A stretch of DNA of 24,099 nucleotides, taken from the NCBI GenBank assembly GCA_036170915.1, contig JAVHQC010000012.1:1-24099 (forward strand). The letters run 5' to 3'. The position numbers were made by a program. Shown here one piece after another: positions 1-9,000 of the stretch. Each line of letters starts with the position of its first letter. The stretch's first letter is position 1. The stretch comes from Cyanobacteria bacterium auto_48_18. GTDB taxonomy: Bacteria > Cyanobacteriota > Vampirovibrionia > Obscuribacterales > Obscuribacteraceae.

Positions 1-3000
1 TTTTAGAAGCAAAGATGTCTCTTAGCTAGTGGTCTAAATTTCGGGGACCGTCTTCAACCACGAGCCAAAGGAGTTATGTAAGTCACCACTCCTGTTTGCA
101 GAATGTTCTGCTGAGGTAATGTAAGCAGTAGCTTGCTGAGCTCCGCGACATCCATTTCAATGGCAGGCTTGACCATTGTTTGATAAGCCTGCACTTCAAC
201 AAAGCTCCTTAACCAACGAACCGGCAGTTTTACTTTGCGTTCGATAATCGATTCTTCGTCCCGGCTCAGTTCCACAGAGTTCACACCAACCTTAAGGCCG
301 ACTTTGTCTGAGTTGCGGAGGGAAGCCATAGCTGCTCTCATAGGAGGATTGAAATCTACATTTGTGGTGCCTTTGGAAAGCCAGGAGCCATCAATCGCTT
401 GACCCGACAAATCAAAGCGAGCATAAACACCACAGCAAACCGAAAAAACTTCAAATCTTAGTCGCTCGCCGTCACAAGTCACAACCGGGTCGGCTGCTGC
501 AAGCATTCGCTCTCTAATGAGACCAGGTGAAAAGAACCTGGTGCGGCTGATAGCCGATAGCGCGAGCAAAATATCAGCTATTGCTCTTGGACTGCGTAAT
601 CTACCGTCAAAAAAATATGGATTCTTATCAAGACCGCCGAACGTTGCGAGTTTAAGGTCACGTCCTTTGCCTTCCTCTGCAACCGTGGAGGCGAATCTGT
701 AGGCGTAGCTAAAATTAACTGCTGATGACAACCGCTATGTCCTTGTGAATGCAAAGGTTTGGCCGAATCCTATCATGGTCTAACCATAGCGCCTACCTAA
801 CAGCGCGGAATTCAGTTATTAGCGGCCCGGTGCGCCCAGGGGGGCTCTGGCGTCATTTGAGGGCATCAACAATGCTATGCCGATTGAGCACCTCCAGCAT
901 CGTCACAACGCCGTTACAACAATCCAATAGATTGGTCGATGTTGGGCATTGCCTTAACCCCCACTTACTATCCGAGGCCAAACGATGAAGAGCGAACTAG
1001 TAGAGTCACAGATCGATAGTGCTAATAAACCAAACGATTCCGCAGCTCACTCAATGCTGGCAGAGGCCAATGCGTCTCAAGAAAGCTATATGTCTCAAAG
1101 ATTAACTCCAGCATCTAGCTCACACTTGCCAGATCTAAGCATTTTTGACAGCGAGAAAGTTAGTCAGAAAAACTCAGCTGCTGGAAATAATTCCGATGTG
1201 GTTTTAGCAACAGGTTTGACCTTCACGCACAATGGAAACCCTGTCGTCATATCCAACGGCGGTTATCCGATAGTGGTGCCAAGAAAATAGCTGATAGCAC
1301 TTGCTCATTCATTCACTACGTTCCGGGCGGCCGCTTGGGAGCATTTCCAAACTGTCGCCATAATCGCGGATACAACTTTTCCAAGTCTGCTTCATCATCT
1401 AATCTTGTACCGGCAGGCTCAGATTCCCACTTTGTTCCAGTCAGACCAGGCAAGTCAACCATAAACCACTCTTTTCTTAGTGGATCTTGCCTCGCCCAGG
1501 CTTTTTTGGGGCACGAATGAAACTTGTCGCACGCATCAAGGTCGGACGCCTTGATCGAATCCGGATCCATGATTGCTTCAGCCACTGCGTTTTTCCCCTG
1601 CATTATTATCGCAGAGGTGAAGTCTTCGAATAAATCGTCTGAGAAACAAAAATCACGGTAAATTATGCGGAATGCCCCGTCAATTTTCCACGTGTTCAAC
1701 GAAATAGACTTCAAATAGGCATGACACGAAAAGGAGGTCAGCTCTTCTTCGTTTAGCAGTTCGAGTTTCTCGATGAGCTTTTCAATTTGACCGTCCTGAG
1801 TTCCTCCCGCTTCTTCTCTACTCTCATGAATAATTCGCCAGAAGTCGTCTTCCGTCAAAATTGATTCTCCTATTCGTTTCGTAAATGATTTCAGATGGAA
1901 ACTGCGATTGTCCGCGAGTGAGGCTAGAACCTCAGCGCGAATATTGTAGACCATCCAAAATGCAAGCTTGCTTGAAGTGTCTGCTCGAGTGAGAAAGCCT
2001 CACTTCCAAATAAAGAAAAGCACCGAAGGTTACTTCCCGGGCGCAGTTTTGATAAACTAAGGCCAGCTAGATACGCTTTAGTCTTAATCGCGTGATTTTC
2101 GTTGAAGGAGCTGAATATGAATCGCTACGCAGTCATGTCCCTCGCCGCAGCTTTATCGGTTGTAGCATCTGGAGTAACGATGGCTCCGTGCCAGGCCCAG
2201 TTCCTCAAAACCCTCCAGGACAGTTTGCTTGGTGGCCAGAACGCTCAGCAAGGTACTGGCTTCAATCAGCCGCAGATGTCGTTGGTCGGTACTGTGAACT
2301 TGCCGCCAGCCCAATACATGATGACTAACGTCCAGACGGGGCAAGCTTTTTACGTCACTGTGCAGAATGGCCAGATGTTCCTCGGCAATCAGCAAGTAGC
2401 ACCTCAGAACTTTATGCCTAATCAAAATATGGCCCCTCAGCAGTCCGGGCAGCAGCAAGGCGGTTTGGGTGGTATGGTCAAAAACGGATTGGGTAGTTTC
2501 TTGCAGAACCAAATGGCACCGCAACAAGGTCAGCAGCTAGCACCTAATCAGTAACTATTGGCAATTAGTGAGCAGCGACTGGTCGAAAAGTGCCAATCAT
2601 GGCAAGAAACATATGTGGGATAGTCAAGGCACTAAGCAAGAAAAACATTGCTCGCACTGCTTGAATAGAAATATCGATAGAAGCCGAAGTGTTGGTGGCA
2701 ACAAAAAAAATCACAAGTGCCAGCAACCAGCTGCCAATAGTAAACACTGCGGATTTTCTAACAAAAATCGAAAGACCATTTGCAAAATTAAGTGAATCAA
2801 ACCGAGAAATTTGTCTCAGACATTGGCGCACTGAATGCCACCAGCAAAAATAGATCGTAAACGAGAGAAGTGGCGGCAAGAGTACGTAAGACAGAAGCAA
2901 AATCAAAGTTTCGGTGCATTCAACAAAACCAGTTTTACATCGCACTTCACACGCCAGGCAAAAATCAAGCACCAGCGATGAAAAGGCCAGACCAATAGTC

Positions 3001-6000: not shown

Positions 6001-9000
6001 AAACGATCGCCCTCTTCTTTCCAATTTACTTTGCCCTGGAGGTTGGGGACAGGAGCCAGAACATAAAAACACTCATGGCCGGGTGGAGCCATAGACGGGT
6101 CAGTTCGGCTAGGCGCATGCAGGTAAAGGCTAAAATCTTCTGCCAAAATCTTTTTCTGAAATATGTCATCCAATAACTCACGGTACCTTTTACCCAGCAA
6201 AATGGTGTGATGATCAACATCAGGATATTGCCTGCTAGTACCGAAATAGAGCACGAAGAGCCCCATTGAATACTGCATTTTTTCAACTCTCTCGTCCGTC
6301 CATTTTATGCGGTCGGGAGCAGCCAGCAGATTTTTATAAAGGAATGGCGGATCGGCGTTAGATACAACTAAATCAGCCCTGTGTACGATACCATCAGTGG
6401 TTTCAACGCCAATCGCACGTCCCTGAGCCGTGATAATTTTGCCTACAGTATAATTCAATTGAACTTCAACGCCGACTTCGCGCATCAGTTGGGCAAGACC
6501 ATCTACAATCGCACCAGTGCCGCCCATGGCATACCAGACCCCAAATTCACGCTCCAAATAATGAATCAGAGCGTAAATTGAAGTTGTATTGAATGGGTTA
6601 CCACCAACTAACAGAGGATGGAAGGTAAAAACCTGCCTGAGCTTCTCATTCTTTATGTAGCGTGACACCAATTGATAGACTGTAAGGTAGCTCTCAAGTT
6701 GAATCATATCTGGAGCCACGGCAAGCATGCTACTCGCAGAAAGAAAGGCATGGTCTCCTAGTTTAGTGAAGCCGACATCAAAAATCTTTTTACATTTAGC
6801 AAATAGCTTTTTATAGCCCGCCACATCAGAAGGCGAGAACTTTTCTATCTCCGCCAGGGTGTCTTCGAAAGTGCCACCATACTTAAAGCTTGAGCCATCA
6901 TCAAATCGAATCTGGTACCAGGGCTCAACAGGTACAAGCTTAAAATAGTCTTCCATTTTTCGGTCAAACAGAGCAAATAATTCTTCGATCAAAAAGGGGG
7001 CAGTGATCACGGTCGGTCCGGCGTCGTAGGTGAAGCCATCCCTTTTGTAGACGTAACCACGGCCCCCTAATTTGTCTTGTTTGTCGAGAACAAGAACCTC
7101 GTACCCTTTCTTTCTCAGGCGCAAAGCAGCTGCAAGCCCGCCAAAACCAGCACCGATAACTATTACTTTAGGCATATCGCCTCGCGTGCTCACTAACTGA
7201 GACTTTGTCTGAGAAATTTACCAACACTAGATCTAGAGTTCGATGCAGAATATACCCTAGGCAGTGACAGCGGATGAGGCGTTGGGTACAGACTCAAGGT
7301 TGTACCCGTCGGCTTCGGATTTAGCCATCGCAATCATGTATATATAGATGCCTAGTCCGACCTTAGCGACAATATCGGCAATTGTGTATCCAACCTGGAG
7401 GCCACACTGGCCGGCACCACCACTCAATCCAATCATTGTCGACAAATACGCAATCGGATAGAAGCTCCACGTGATCAAAAGCAGCCCGCGAGCGGCTGAA
7501 ACCAGACTCTTCACTTGTTCAGGCTGTCGGCTGAAGGCACGGCCAAATTCAGTAAACAGAGTGTACATGATGAACAAAAAAGGAGTCATGGAGAGGGCCC
7601 AGAATAGCCAGCGAGTGCTTGCTTGTTGGGAAATTTCACCTGGGTATCCGAGTGCAATCATCAGAGCAGCTGCAGAGGAGAGCTTCAATATCAGACCTCT
7701 CGACACCGCCGCTGGCAGCGCCAGGACAGCAACCAGCTCAATCACTAACAGTGGCACTGTGAGCAACCAATCTGCATAGCGGTATGCATCGTTGAAGGGT
7801 AAACCCGAAGCCTGATAGGCACCGTTCACCAGTGTGTAGGCATGGCTAAAACTTTCGTAGATACGGAAGTAGTGGTAGCACGCGATTGTCGGAACAAGGG
7901 CGCTGACCAGAAGAGCAGGACGATATTTTGGTGCTACCTGACTCCTTGAGTAAAAAAAGAAAAGTGCTCCGGCAAGCATGGCTGCGCAGCACAAAGACAT
8001 CACGTTTGTAATTAAACTGTATTCAGTAGCTGATAAAGTAGGCATAAATGCTCCTATCGTAGAGTACCGATCTCACTTCAGTGAGGCTTTCTCTACTACC
8101 AAAGTTACTCGGCCGGTGTGAACTAACAGTGAACTGCGACAGGCTTATCGCGTCTTAAGTAGTTCAAGACGCTGTTTTGCTTTTGCAACAACCTGATCAG
8201 AACTACCGCCCAACTTGATGCATGTCTCCAATTCCGCTATAGCTCCTTCACTGTCACCACTCTTTTCCATAGCACTAGCTAACAGCCAATGAATGGTGGC
8301 ATCATCAGGAGCAAGTTTGGCAGCATCTTTGTACGCATTCGTTGCAGGGCCAATGTAGCCCTGCGCCAGTAACACAGAGCCAAGCGTTGTATTCGCAGAA
8401 GCAGATTTAGGGTCAAGGCGCACAGCTTCTTTAGCTTGAGCTGTCGATTGGTCCACATCTCCGCTCTTCATCAGACCGTAGCTAAGGCGCTCGCGCAAAT
8501 CAGAGCGTTTCGGATACAGGTCGACAGCTTCTTCTAAATAACGCACCGACTCTTTTGCCTGACCAGCAGCGAGCATTTTCTTAGATAGCCCCATCAATAC
8601 TGACGTGTCTTTTGGATTGAGTCTGTATGCTGTATTGAGCTCTTGCAGGCTGTTTTCCGCATCACCCAGCTGGTCTAAAATTCGAGCGTAGTTGAGGTGA
8701 AAGAGTGCATCATTCGGATTGGCAGCGATTGCCTTTTTCTGCATTTCTGATGCAGCTTTCCAATCGCCTTTAATCGCCAATGCGGCGCCATAATCTGCAA
8801 GCGCGTCAGCGTATTTAGGATCTGCGGCAATAGCTAGTTTGTATTGCTCGAGCGCTTCGTCCATTTTTCCTTCTGCGACAAACTTGCTAGCTTTTAAGTA
8901 AGCTCCTTCTGCCGAAAGAAAAGAAGTAACCGCAGCAGGTAAGTTAGAGACATGCTCTACAGGCGGCACACCAACAACAAGTTCTGCTCCAGTCCATGCT

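Follow-up and report, generated by a model that had tools for sequence, protein, structure and literature searches.

The window analysed here is a stretch of 24,099 nt, contig C12 of an Obscuribacteraceae genome (4.94 Mb, designated G000). Between positions 2565 and 8045 it contains intact ORFs for a rhodopsin, crtI, crtB, crtY, and blh, all read in one direction on the minus strand (Table 1). Adjacent genes either overlap, by 20 nt (crtI/crtB) and 4 nt (crtY/blh), or are spaced by gaps of 63 and 21 nt. The initial annotation had described a co-directional five-gene cassette, and all five ORFs and gene identities were reproduced by Pfam and NCBIfam profile matches. With good confidence, we regard this region as one operon of the order rhodopsin-crtI-crtB-crtY-blh, an assessment covering the explanation as a whole, including host, pump, and origin.

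Table 1. Genes and candidate regulatory features of the rhodopsin cassette (window coordinates).
Feature	Position	Strand	Evidence or remark
Xanthorhodopsin-family opsin, 262 aa	7257..8045	-	PF01036 141.6 bits
crtI, phytoene desaturase	5703..7193	-	TIGR02734 592.3 bits, cut-off 238.1
crtB, phytoene synthase	4706..5722	-	PF00494 (SQS_PSY) 167.6 bits
crtY-type lycopene cyclase	3512..4684	-	PF05834 (Lycopene_cycl) 143.6 bits
blh, beta-carotene 15,15'-dioxygenase, retinal-forming step	2565..3515	-	TIGR03753 156 bits, cut-off 95.25; PF15461 143.9 bits
Opsin ribosome-binding site AGGAG	8051..8055	-	read from sequence; 5 nt 5' of opsin ATG
Candidate (extended) -10 region, conserved block TTTGGTAG	8096..8103	-	14-15 nt 3' of repeat
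Candidate operator, direct repeat GTTCACTGTTAGTTCAC with 11-nt period	8118..8134	-	end 72 nt 5' of opsin ATG

The ribosome-binding site of the opsin is kept as AAGGAGCA among the orthologues of genus g1. For crtI, an ATG at 7175, preceded by GAGG, is the likelier start compared with 7193. For crtB the start may lie at codon 1, 21, 26, or 42, with orthologue alignments starting at residues 21-26; its top NCBIfam matches are phytoene-synthase equivalogs, every one below its cut-off. The lycopene cyclase is considered a divergent member of its family, since it reaches only 78 bits against TIGR01790 (cut-off 209). The previous claim that the cassette comprises the whole path from GGPP to retinal holds for the pathway genes, while the supply of GGPP lies outside: no GGPP synthase is found inside the cassette, and the sole FPP/GGPP-type short-chain prenyl synthase of the genome is encoded elsewhere. 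This enzyme scores 300 bits as FPP synthase (above the cut-off) and 278 bits as CrtE (below the cut-off of 460), and would presumably have to deliver the GGPP. Compared with G034 and G026, dN ranges from 0.05 to 0.26 (0.05-0.06 for the opsin) with synonymous sites saturated; the cassette has been held under strong purifying selection.

The opsin shows seven hydrophobic segments, and its translation contains the motifs RYADWLLTVPLLVIE and DIVAK. A scripted position check confirmed R89, D92, T96, E103, D224, and K228, thereby reproducing the reported Asp-Thr-Glu and retinal-lysine motifs; the table of key sites further lists H58, L100, and W149. Full-length matches were obtained to the solved chains of psXR (9wfa, 3.5e-78), Gloeobacter rhodopsin (GR, 6nwd, 2.6e-75), Salinibacter xanthorhodopsin (SrXR, 3ddl, 3.2e-73), Thermus rhodopsin (5azd), and Kin4B8 (7ytb), the weakest at 8.3e-65, with His, Asp-Thr-Glu, Asp, and Lys at equal positions in the solved xanthorhodopsin (XR) pumps. 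We thus predict an outward light-driven proton pump of the xanthorhodopsin family. The signature had been assigned to proteo/xanthorhodopsins in general; the xanthorhodopsin part of this assignment stands, whereas the proteorhodopsin part does not, and the antenna glycine is absent. In HMMER alignments, Trp149 is placed opposite Gly156 of SrXR and Gly172 of psXR, and psXR, GR, and SrXR all carry Gly at this fenestration position. Within an alignment of 115 rows, the position is occupied by 52 W, 53 G, 9 F, and 1 A, with W in every printed row of the 36-row clade of the window opsin. According to a published study, Trp or Phe at this site precludes antenna binding (PMC12779958). Because the carotenoid window is opened by a glycine that Trp149 replaces here, no carotenoid antenna is predicted.

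Extension of the analysis to the order showed orthologues of 82-93% identity in 7 of 106 other genomes (three genera), one of them on a contig of 941,683 bases, and a second rhodopsin of 30-32% identity in four more. These numbers, the presence of BCD in 11 of the 106, the restriction of the cassette to a minority of the family, and the lack of conserved flanks agree with the initial annotation. In our sample of the class, in contrast, rhodopsins were more frequent than its class-wide 18 in 880 genomes: counted in the same way and considering other genomes only, 20 of 400 exceeded the Pfam cut-off. In the order's 107 genomes, rhodopsin and blh are confined to one shared set of 12, and crtI is present in 11 of these 12 versus 2 of the 95 others, a co-occurrence we count in favor of a dedicated pathway. 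For the second rhodopsin type (G036, G077, G102, and G043), the nearest relatives are proteorhodopsins and, among solved chains, 4hyj; it carries Met where the window opsin has His58, and its fenestration residue is Phe. Like the window opsin, it has blh and crtI-crtB-crtY as linked genes; in G036, an opsin-blh-DnaJ-like unit converges on crtI-crtB-crtY, the products being 82% (crtI), 65% (crtB), and 64% (crtY) identical to those of the window. A fragment of 114 aa on contig C37 of G000 is the 3' remnant of a rhodopsin of this second type and marks a decayed locus.

In the opsin phylogeny, the window opsin falls into a clade of 14 rows (support 99) nested in a clade of 28 rows (support 98), which also holds Sumerlaeota, Planctomycetota, and a Neolewinella-labelled protein. 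The clade is thus placed among sequences of Planctomycetota, Sumerlaeota, and Bacteroidota, on a branch separate from the oxygenic-cyanobacterial rhodopsins, including GR and psXR, and from those of Sericytochromatia, which points to lateral transfer. Union with the oxygenic-cyanobacterial XR clade, a grouping chosen after inspection of the tree, was rejected by the AU test (delta lnL 85.2, p 0.00155). While the window opsin heads a retinal/carotenoid operon, XR genes of oxygenic cyanobacteria are reported never to share an operon with genes for retinal or carotenoids (PMC12779958). Among 80 XR loci from other phyla, two show the same five-gene order; seven further loci have four of the cassette genes in order, among them the form found in Saltatorellus ferox (L028), and an eighth has four in another order. 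The cassettes of the Planctomycetota MAGs L019 and L051 match the window in order and direction. Between L019 and the window, opsin and crtI are 63% and 59% identical, with Trp shared at the fenestration position, whereas crtB, crtY, and blh are just 30-34% identical. The cassette was probably acquired as a block by lateral transfer, the gene order being known in Planctomycetota, and has moved between members of the Obscuribacteraceae.

Upstream of the opsin, 7 of 8 orthologous cassettes carry GTTCAC-N5-GTTCAC in the orientation of the gene, 63-84 nt 5' of the start, and the repeat is kept where the DNA around it cannot be aligned. It is absent from the G090 cassette, and of the four loci of the second rhodopsin type, G077 alone carries it in the direction of the gene. 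The block TTTGGTAG is present in the aligned g1 promoters of G000, G034, G026, and G030 and also in G032; it may act as -10 region, and a generic promoter scan gave no match at this block. In PhoB/OmpR-type operators, direct repeats spaced with an 11-nt period stand where the -35 region would otherwise be. The window resembles them in its two 6-nt repeats 11 nt apart and the -10-like block downstream, and differs in that no phosphate genes were seen among the targets. Exact copies of the repeat number 287 in the 107 genomes versus approximately 50 for a reversed-pattern control, with two in G000 including the opsin promoter. Unlike the window cassette, none of the 80 XR loci of other phyla has the repeat, even with up to one mismatch (0 in 898,812 bases). 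Exact sites in G036 and at C6:81399 of G000 sit past a gene's 3' end and have no clear target.

The same repeat would connect the cassette to a putative photoreceptor. G000 encodes a single NCRFLQ-type LOV protein (C6:82362-83516), whose LOV domain carries GRNCRFLQ and precedes HisKA and HATPase domains. We compared it with YtvA, YF1 (4gcz), 6ph4 and 3t50 ("blue-light-activated histidine kinase"), and phototropin LOV2; the match to YF1 reaches 1.1e-50, and those to many LOV chains about 1e-28. The operon of its gene also encodes a YfcH-type SDR and a group-2-like sigma factor and adjoins a divergent OmpR-type regulator gene (C6:84514-85218); the 115-nt gap shared with this regulator gene contains a one-mismatch repeat. 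Repeat sites adjoin operons of LOV histidine kinase and response regulator in G016, G017, G058, and G042 (the two genes overlap or adjoin in G042 and G058). We propose that the repeat serves as operator for the OmpR/PhoB-type partner regulator of the LOV histidine kinase. Its sharing between the opsin promoter and the kinase/regulator locus, which it marks throughout the family, suggests blue-light induction of the operon, to which we give an even chance. The occurrence of the repeat at both opsin promoters and a LOV kinase locus is new here; our literature search found no published link between a LOV histidine kinase and a rhodopsin operon. We consider it rather unlikely that the repeat, although real, serves another OmpR/PhoB-type regulator (phosphate, stress) and leaves the cassette without light control. 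Such an assignment would fit the regulator, which is generic, below all equivalog cut-offs, and closest to PhoB (208 bits vs 296), the approximately 19 OmpR-type paralogues of G000, and the apparent likeness of 11-nt-period GTTCAC repeats to actinobacterial PHO boxes, as well as sites at a TPR protein and a GlmU-like protein with no obvious light link. It is at odds with the finding that, in five genera or more, sites flank the very genes for LOV kinase and regulator, and that all 13 g1 genomes with an orthologue of the kinase have an exact site at 966-1218 nt past it. Moreover, the PstS-like and PhoU-like loci of G000 have no site with up to one mismatch within a distance of 11-12 kb, and the recurrent targets, judged from hand-picked rather than random loci, are non-phosphate genes (YfcH-type SDR, amine-oxidase-like flavoprotein, DUF2867-NmrA, fasciclin, and GTP cyclohydrolase I).

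Three further readings concern the host, the benefit, and the function of the pump. The earlier doubt that C12 is mis-binned, or a chimeric piece of another organism that would leave the chlorophyll-less relative without a rhodopsin, drew on its length of 24 kb and an IS21 element (IstA and IstB, found at 19724-22088). The tetranucleotide distance of C12 (rank 180 of 192 chunks, in the upper tail but within the range of the bin) and flanking genes not common to the cassettes of G034, G026, G030, G084, and G025, save one small ORF in G026, point the same way. In contrast, the flanks at 8145-11717 and 13043-15600 have 87-92% nucleotide identity to same-genus genomes, genes on either side of 8145-16450 are matched in 14 of 14 other genomes of the genus, and both contig ends share 55-mers with ends of the large contigs C10, C8, and C29 of the bin. 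A second assembler gave a single 19,602-base contig over window positions 26-19627, with 0 differences and an even depth of 13.6, covering cassette and flanks. In same-genus genomes, orthologous cassettes are found 422 kb into the contig of 941,683 bases and 195 kb into another of 739,131 bases, and the promoter repeat is specific to Obscuribacteraceae. C12 is a genuine chromosomal contig of an Obscuribacteraceae bacterium, and mis-binning retains only the slightest probability. Members of the cluster at ≥90% identity bear the NCBI name "Candidatus Melainabacteria bacterium", which gives the taxon label independent support. That the cassette yields no light energy in its habitat, being a relic under loss or a source of carotenoids for photoprotection or membranes, appears improbable. 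The only sequencing run listed with this DNA, probably its source, is a groundwater metagenome, the second rhodopsin locus of the same genome has decayed, few genomes of the order have a rhodopsin, and the G030 cassette has lost crtY. Against this stand the five intact ORFs, the low opsin dN at saturated synonymous sites, the presence of blh in all 12 opsin-bearing genomes, the near restriction of crtI to opsin-bearing genomes, and the retention of the LOV sensor and a photolyase-family gene; retinal formation is the only known role of blh. Even less probable, and very much so, is a light sensor or a pump for another ion, a thought prompted by the motif-based assignment of function and by a few proteorhodopsin-related proteins that are reported to be sensors (PMC10519204). 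Residues H58, D92, T96, E103, D224, and K228 are as in the proton pumps psXR, GR, and SrXR, the operon has retinal synthesis genes, like pump cassettes of other phyla, and no transducer or signaling gene, and Na+ and Cl- pumps match at 78-88 bits, far below proton pumps (up to 266 bits).

Under the favored proton-pump reading, CrtB would convert GGPP to phytoene, CrtI phytoene to lycopene, CrtY lycopene to beta-carotene, and Blh beta-carotene to two retinals, with retinal bound at Lys228 of the opsin. Asp92, paired with His58, would serve as counter-ion and Glu103 as proton donor, the set further including Thr96 and, at the presumed color-tuning site, Leu100. With Trp149 filling the position of the fenestration glycine, the pump would work on retinal alone. 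Photosystem reaction-centre families were not found in the genome (86% complete), and our literature search found no published report of rhodopsins in Vampirovibrionia. Light would add to the proton-motive force of a heterotrophic host. A member of the chlorophyll-less sister class of oxygenic cyanobacteria thus carries an intact operon for a predicted light-driven proton pump that would be equipped with its own retinal.

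All five open reading frames of the cassette (window 2565-8045) are intact and run co-directionally on the minus strand, and their Pfam and NCBIfam matches bear out the five-gene cassette claimed in the initial annotation. An overlap of 20 nt between crtI and crtB and one of 4 nt between crtY and blh, with gaps of 63 and 21 nt elsewhere, speak for reading the genes as one operon. The ATG at 7175 is the likelier start of crtI, and the start codon position of crtB is uncertain. CrtI, above the TIGR02734 cut-off, carries an N-terminal FAD-binding fold (NAD_binding_8 at residues 12-77). 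The crtB and crtY products passed the Pfam cut-offs and remained below those of the NCBIfam subfamily and equivalog models (crtB under all of them, with 172 vs 500 and, for HpnD, 139 vs 279; crtY 78 bits vs 209.5 for TIGR01790); thus, their names derive in part from the operon context, which favours CrtB as the identity of the former. The genome encodes two polyprenyl synthases, one solanesyl-type and one short-chain. As the short-chain enzyme scored as an FPP synthase (300 vs the subfamily cut-off of 275) and under CrtE (278 vs 460), the supply of GGPP to the cassette is assumed.

Coordinates of the cassette, of the LOV sensor locus on contig C6, and of further features of the window and of contig C37
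Feature	Location	Strand	Match or remark
Rhodopsin (opsin), 262 aa	window 7257-8045	minus	PF01036 Bac_rhodopsin, 141.6 bits, residues 16-238
crtI, CrtI-family desaturase	window 5703-7193	minus	TIGR02734, 592.3 bits vs cut-off 238.1
crtB, SQS_PSY phytoene synthase	window 4706-5722	minus	PF00494, 167.6 vs cut-off 26
crtY, Lycopene_cycl cyclase	window 3512-4684	minus	PF05834, 143.6 vs cut-off 23.4
blh, Brp/Blh beta-carotene 15,15'-dioxygenase	window 2565-3515	minus	TIGR03753, 156 bits vs cut-off 95.25
Hairpin CTCAC TGAA GTGAG (mRNA strand)	window 8071-8086		opsin 5' leader
Genus-conserved gene pair	window 8145-11671		up to 91% nucleotide identity
Defence-like genes	window 11848-15604		
TacA-like antitoxin	window 16643-16924		PF08681, 65.7 bits
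394-aa protein	window 18382-19566		sub-threshold di-iron matches
IS21 element (IstA, IstB)	window 19594-22088		
Regulator gene, OmpR-type	C6:84514-85218	plus	best NCBIfam match PhoB, 208 vs 296
115-nt gap with GTTCACTGCATATTCAC	C6, between regulator and SDR	minus	one mismatch to the GTTCAC repeat
YfcH-type SDR	C6:84399-83491	minus	
LOV histidine kinase (LOV-HK)	C6:83516-82362	minus	GRNCRFLQ; PAS_9, HisKA, HATPase_c
Group-2-like sigma-70 factor	C6:82301-81402	minus	
Second exact GTTCAC repeat of the genome	C6:81399	minus	
About 740 nt without convincing ORF (L114)	C6:80663-81401		between repeat and rtcB
Locus of the second-type opsin remnant (L002, L102)	C37:18403-20095		114-aa ORF

The opsin displays seven hydrophobic segments in its hydropathy profile, and K228 of the DIVAK motif aligned with the retinal-binding Lys of the solved xanthorhodopsin (XR)-family pumps psXR, GR, and SrXR. 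H58, R89, D92, T96, L100, E103, D224, and K228 were confirmed by position, in agreement with the Asp-Thr-Glu signature in helix C and the retinal Lys described initially (D92, T96, E103, and K228); none of the 21 aligned relatives deviates at H58, D92, T96, or E103. The best solved relatives, proton pumps of the XR family throughout, were psXR (3.5e-78), Gloeobacter rhodopsin (GR, 2.6e-75), and Salinibacter xanthorhodopsin (SrXR, 3.2e-73), followed by a Thermus rhodopsin and Kin4B8. XR-family chains reached 197-266 bits vs 77-97 bits for proteorhodopsins and bacteriorhodopsins, and chloride and sodium pumps likewise scored threefold below the XR-family chains. The signature, formerly described as of proteo/xanthorhodopsin type, can thus be narrowed to its xanthorhodopsin part, proteorhodopsins scoring far lower. 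Judged by these comparisons, the opsin is a microbial type-1 rhodopsin of the xanthorhodopsin family; with the XR proton-pump residue set (DTE plus counter-ion His) it is predicted to be a pump, and Leu at its tuning position (L100) presumably confers green absorption.

Trp149 of the opsin aligned with Gly156 of the Salinibacter XR and Gly172 of psXR. Passages of PMC12779958 state that glycine at this position (SrXR 156 / psXR 172) makes the fenestration required by the carotenoid antenna, and that Trp or Phe there precludes carotenoid binding. Across a 115-row alignment, the fenestration residue is Gly in 53, Trp in 52, Phe in 9, and Ala in 1 of the rows. It is Trp in every printed row of the 36-row clade hosting the opsin as well as in all XR-type orthologues of Obscuribacteraceae, and Gly in the oxygenic-cyanobacterial, Deinococcus, and Sericytochromatia rows. 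Antenna-containing xanthorhodopsins have the fenestration Gly, whereas the opsin of the window has Trp149 instead. Clade membership and this residue together therefore assign it to the xanthorhodopsin lineage by descent, as a predicted non-antenna member.

Mis-binning of the contig (C12), a doubt raised in the initial annotation, was countered by its flanks, end sequences, reassembly, and composition, all of which tie it to the bin (39 contigs, 4.94 Mb, 86% complete, 2.4% contamination). A DNA search of window 1-20000 against 14 other genomes of the same genus recovered block 8145-11717 at 91, 88, and 87% identity, block 13043-15600 at 89-92% in six genomes, and smaller blocks at 82-89%. The opening 55 bases of C12 are identical to ends of C10 (233 kb) and C8 (97 kb), and its closing 55 to the end of C29 (389 kb), which look like assembly-graph overlaps; these 55-mers occupy contig ends 1-55 and 24045-24099. 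A Logan assembly, built from the same reads with another assembler and hence not independent of the sample, contains a single 19,602-base contig covering window 26-19627 with 0 differences at an even depth of 13.6, branching solely at the border of the IS21 element. Between that border (19594-19635) and the end of C1 there is 98% identity. In tetranucleotide distance, C12 ranks 180 among 192 24-kb chunks, far from the outlier contigs C2, C7, and C28, and the cassette taken by itself falls on the 83rd percentile of 5.5-kb chunks. In the cluster of opsins with at least 90% identity, which bears the NCBI name 'bacteriorhodopsin-like [Candidatus Melainabacteria bacterium]', two members reside on contigs of 739,131 and 941,683 bases. 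One run, X1 (a groundwater metagenome), contains the DNA of the window and is probably its source, with X2 and X3 containing next to no sampled words; no RNA run is listed as containing the window. Photo_RC and PsaA/PsaB families, both detected in a Synechococcus control, were not found in the bin, which at 86% completeness is no proof of absence.

Of the genus-conserved pair next to the cassette, one gene encodes a TPR protein whose N-terminal part shows weak caspase-like similarity (NF047832, 47 bits vs a cut-off of 140), the other an alpha/beta hydrolase with C-terminal DUF4384. The defence-like stretch consists of an AAA_14/DUF4143 ATPase followed by an AAA_5 ATPase whose gene overlaps that of a DUF2357/PD-(D/E)XK nuclease, the latter two resembling McrBC and being present at 89-92% DNA identity in six same-genus genomes. 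Among ORFs of at least 80 aa, no recognisable acetyltransferase toxin gene adjoins the TacA-like antitoxin. The sub-threshold matches of the 394-aa protein are to the RNR small chain, aldehyde decarbonylase, and AurF, and its gene recurs at 85-86% DNA identity in two genomes (G025, G035).

Within the order (107 genomes including that of auto_48_18), a rhodopsin was detected in 12 genomes, eight of them carrying the window's type (82-100% identity; genera g1, g32, and g34, with auto_48_18 belonging to g1) and four a second type (30-32%). PF15461 (blh) occurs in exactly the same 12 of 107. A crtI match (E<=1e-40) was obtained in 13 of 107, namely in 11 of the 12 opsin genomes, the exception being G090 (77% complete, 830 contigs), plus G101 and G103. 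Carotenoid synthesis is accordingly nearly limited to opsin genomes, which would be expected if its purpose is retinal. The minority occurrence, the gene order kept in G034 and G084, and the unshared flanks reported initially were all reproduced, the order being kept in G026 as well. Variants were found, too: G030 has a cassette without crtY (L016, on contig C40) and a crtY-like stretch on its contig C7, while in G025 (L018, contig C70) opsin-crtB-crtY-blh share one strand and crtI, more divergent at 64%, occupies the opposite one. Extension to a class sample of 401 genomes yielded PF01036 over cut-off in 21, i.e., the 12 of the order plus 5/30, 3/9, and 1/25 genomes of families f4, f7, and f9. 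According to translations, f4 rhodopsins have Asp-Thr-Lys and an overlapping or adjacent blh-like gene, and those of f7 Asp-Thr-Glu; the f9 rhodopsin is xanthorhodopsin-like with Trp and adjoins a polyprenyl-synthase-like gene.

The second opsin type is best seen in G036, a complete same-genus genome consisting of one contig, in which (L101, G036:C1:1948000-1967900) crtI-crtB-crtY, 82, 65, and 64% identical to the window's genes, converges on an opsin-blh-DnaJ-like unit of the opposite strand. The closest matches of this opsin are chain 4hyj (9.2e-46) and proteorhodopsins. The 114-aa fragment on C37, left open in the initial annotation, could be recognized as a 3' remnant of this proteorhodopsin-like type: it corresponds to helices E-G of the G036 opsin near residue-for-residue, including the motifs WAIYPIGY and DAINK. 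A DnaJ-like gene follows 3' as in G036, neither blh nor the opsin's 5' half is left, and an EAL-domain gene upstream is preceded by GTTCACAAGCAGGTCAC, which has one mismatch to the repeat GTTCAC-N5-GTTCAC treated below. Together with the intact cassette, this shows that the genome kept one cassette and lost the other.

In order to trace the origin of the opsin, we calculated a tree of 115 proteins (the window's, 11 from Obscuribacterales loci, 80 from named-organism loci of other species, and 23 metagenome proteins) by a quick method with SH-aLRT support alone and no row removed for length; the underlying related-locus search gave distant relatives (49-64% identity), without close Obscuribacterales genomes. 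Window-type opsins form a 14-row clade (support 99), nested in a 28-row clade (support 98) with proteins of a Sumerlaeota MAG and a Planctomycetota MAG and a Neolewinella sp.-labelled protein. Oxygenic-cyanobacterial XRs (Synechocystis-labelled MAG, Elainellaceae MAG) group with Deinococcus, as likewise described in a section of PMC12779958, and the single Sericytochromatia XR groups with an Opitutales MAG. A forced union of the Obscuribacteraceae and oxygenic-cyanobacterial clades, a group chosen after the tree was seen, changed the log-likelihood by -85.2 units (AU test, p 0.00155). Among the 80 loci of other species, the five-gene order recurs in two Planctomycetota MAGs (L019, L051) and the first four genes in order in 7 further loci, with L062 having the four in another order. 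Gene order shared with other phyla makes a lateral movement of the cassette as a block plausible. In comparison to G034 and G026, dN ranged from 0.05-0.06 (opsin) to 0.26 (blh) at saturated synonymous sites; saturation affected 13 of 15 dN/dS comparisons, and two blh ratios amounted to 0.08 and 0.15. The opsin shares 93% protein identity vs 77% DNA identity with its orthologue, and by such divergence values the cassette is old and under purifying selection. The LOV-HK of the genome has 91% identity to its counterpart in G035, 88% to that in G025, and 76-79% to those in G034 and G026, and the opsin follows the reverse pattern with 82% to G025 and 93% to G034. This suggests, on the basis of one marker, an exchange of cassettes within the family. 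Window 1-12000 contains no repeats of note flanking the cassette and thus no insertion scars. A search for the empty site in G024, G025, and G035, which share 8145-11717, delivered no clean insertion site because the homologue of the left-flank gene (2102-2554) sits on other contigs there.

Alignment of the 260 nt before the opsin start from six genomes revealed DNA that is unalignable save three elements: the repeat GTTCAC-N5-GTTCAC, a TTTGGTAG block (14-15 nt 3' of the repeat in genus g1), and the ribosome-binding site. A perfect 5-bp hairpin in the opsin 5' leader is found in auto_48_18 alone among the six. In 7 of 8 window-type cassettes, all except that of G090, the exact repeat is oriented with the gene and ends 63-84 nt before the ATG. 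The 4.94 Mb of the auto_48_18 genome contain 2 exact copies (0-2 for other spacings) and 14 sites with up to one mismatch, 6 of these lying 35-84 nt upstream of a same-strand ORF. Throughout the 107 genomes, 287 exact sites occur in 81 genomes, compared with about 50 (hand sum) for the control pattern read backwards. In the 898,812 bases surrounding the 80 XR genes from other phyla, the repeat was not found even with one mismatch, and it is absent at rhodopsin loci L104-L112 of other families of the class (G108, G119, G129, G166, G214, G127, G122, and G179). Of the second opsin type, G077 has exact repeats upstream of opsin and crtI; at the opsins of G102 and G043 the repeat is absent. In G036, an exact repeat with no obvious target sits after a gene's 3' end, between the two converging units, and a one-mismatch copy has the opposite orientation. 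A generic scan of 1900-8400 returned 7 promoter-like elements vs 8.5 expected and 10 terminator-like ones vs 6.9; since none lay upstream of the opsin, the scan is uninformative.

At 12 loci of other genomes, picked for conserved or paired sites and hence not random, an ORF of the same strand starts no more than 700 nt, and mostly no more than 100 nt, from 18 of 22 exact sites. Adjoining genes encode a 363-396-aa histidine kinase with N-terminal PAS_9 and G(K/H/R)NCRFLQG, an OmpR-type response regulator, a YfcH-type SDR with DUF1731, and an amine-oxidase-like flavoprotein, as well as DUF2867-NmrA, fasciclin, GTP cyclohydrolase I, NUDIX, and Rieske oxygenase proteins. Kinase and regulator genes overlap in G042 and form one cluster with sites between them in G058 and G017. 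The same gene families recur at the other promoter-proximal sites of auto_48_18, which lie before an amine-oxidase-like gene, beside a fasciclin gene, before a single-domain response regulator, and, with one mismatch, before the EAL gene on C37.

On C6 of auto_48_18, the kinase contains the only in-frame NCRFLQ of the genome, the LOV motif with the flavin-binding Cys. Its best solved matches are YF1 (a YtvA-LOV fusion, 1.1e-50), YtvA, and short LOV proteins of Pseudomonas, besides LOV domains of aureochrome and phototropin and chains annotated as 'blue-light-activated histidine kinase'; by these matches it is a predicted LOV blue-light sensor histidine kinase. An orthologue is present in 13 of 15 g1 genomes (76-100% identity), and in 13/13 of these the exact repeat follows on the same strand 966-1218 nt past the kinase's 3' end. 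The one-mismatch site before the SDR gene recurs in G036, 43 nt upstream. The layout of sigma factor, repeat, gap, and rtcB is also found in G036 and G026, and the gap may encode a small RNA or a small protein that the repeat controls. Many LOV-HK matches in genera g32 and g34 contain one in-frame stop (TAG, TGA, or TAA), which may stem from alignments that, at their N-terminal end, run through the stop of the upstream gene, and not from broken genes. The genome furthermore has a photolyase-family gene.

The adjoining regulator lies under every NCBIfam equivalog cut-off and has about 19 paralogues in the genome, which, like the repeat pattern at the opsin loci of G102, G043, and G036, counts against the model that follows. 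A reading of the repeat as a Pho box received no support, as the 11-12 kb around the PstS-like and PhoU-like loci contain no site even when one mismatch is allowed. In our estimate, the odds are about even that the LOV-paired regulator uses the repeat as its operator and that the opsin operon is blue-light-induced; this link to a LOV regulon is based on the co-occurrence and conservation of the putative operator. The wider model, which we hold tentatively and with slightly less than even confidence, comprises a family-wide blue-light regulon (LOV-HK, OmpR-type regulator, sigma factor, operator), which laterally acquired rhodopsin-retinal cassettes of two opsin types would have joined by gaining the operator in some lineages.

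Literature searches retrieved no published report of rhodopsins in the class Vampirovibrionia (Melainabacteria, Obscuribacter), and none that connects LOV to these taxa or LOV kinases to rhodopsin operons. The cassette proteins themselves are already public under automatic names. A figure legend of PMC12779958 includes XRs of Sericytochromatia and none of Vampirovibrionia, some of which its supplements might list.

Altogether, the cassette is real and its earlier interpretation stands, with opsin and cassette being laterally acquired. Obscuribacteraceae are usually regarded as aphotic, non-photosynthetic relatives of cyanobacteria, and the sister classes of oxygenic cyanobacteria, taken as not using light, inform reasoning on the origin of photosynthesis. 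An intact, selected operon implies that some members probably obtain light energy by a different, laterally acquired route, and the separate opsin origins speak for repeated, independent recruitment. As the opsin stands apart from those of oxygenic cyanobacteria and Sericytochromatia, it is silent on an ancestral light-using cyanobacterium. As the reads originate from groundwater, one has to ask where these cells encounter light. A native blue-light sensor system and a common operator fit the picture of light use, the conserved operator providing a testable handle on host control of a transferred phototrophy module. Most worth testing is the possible tie to the native two-component system for blue light. 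Under the wider model, if true, Obscuribacteraceae would be light-sensing, light-induced photoheterotrophs, representing a third independent route to phototrophy in the phylum Cyanobacteriota.
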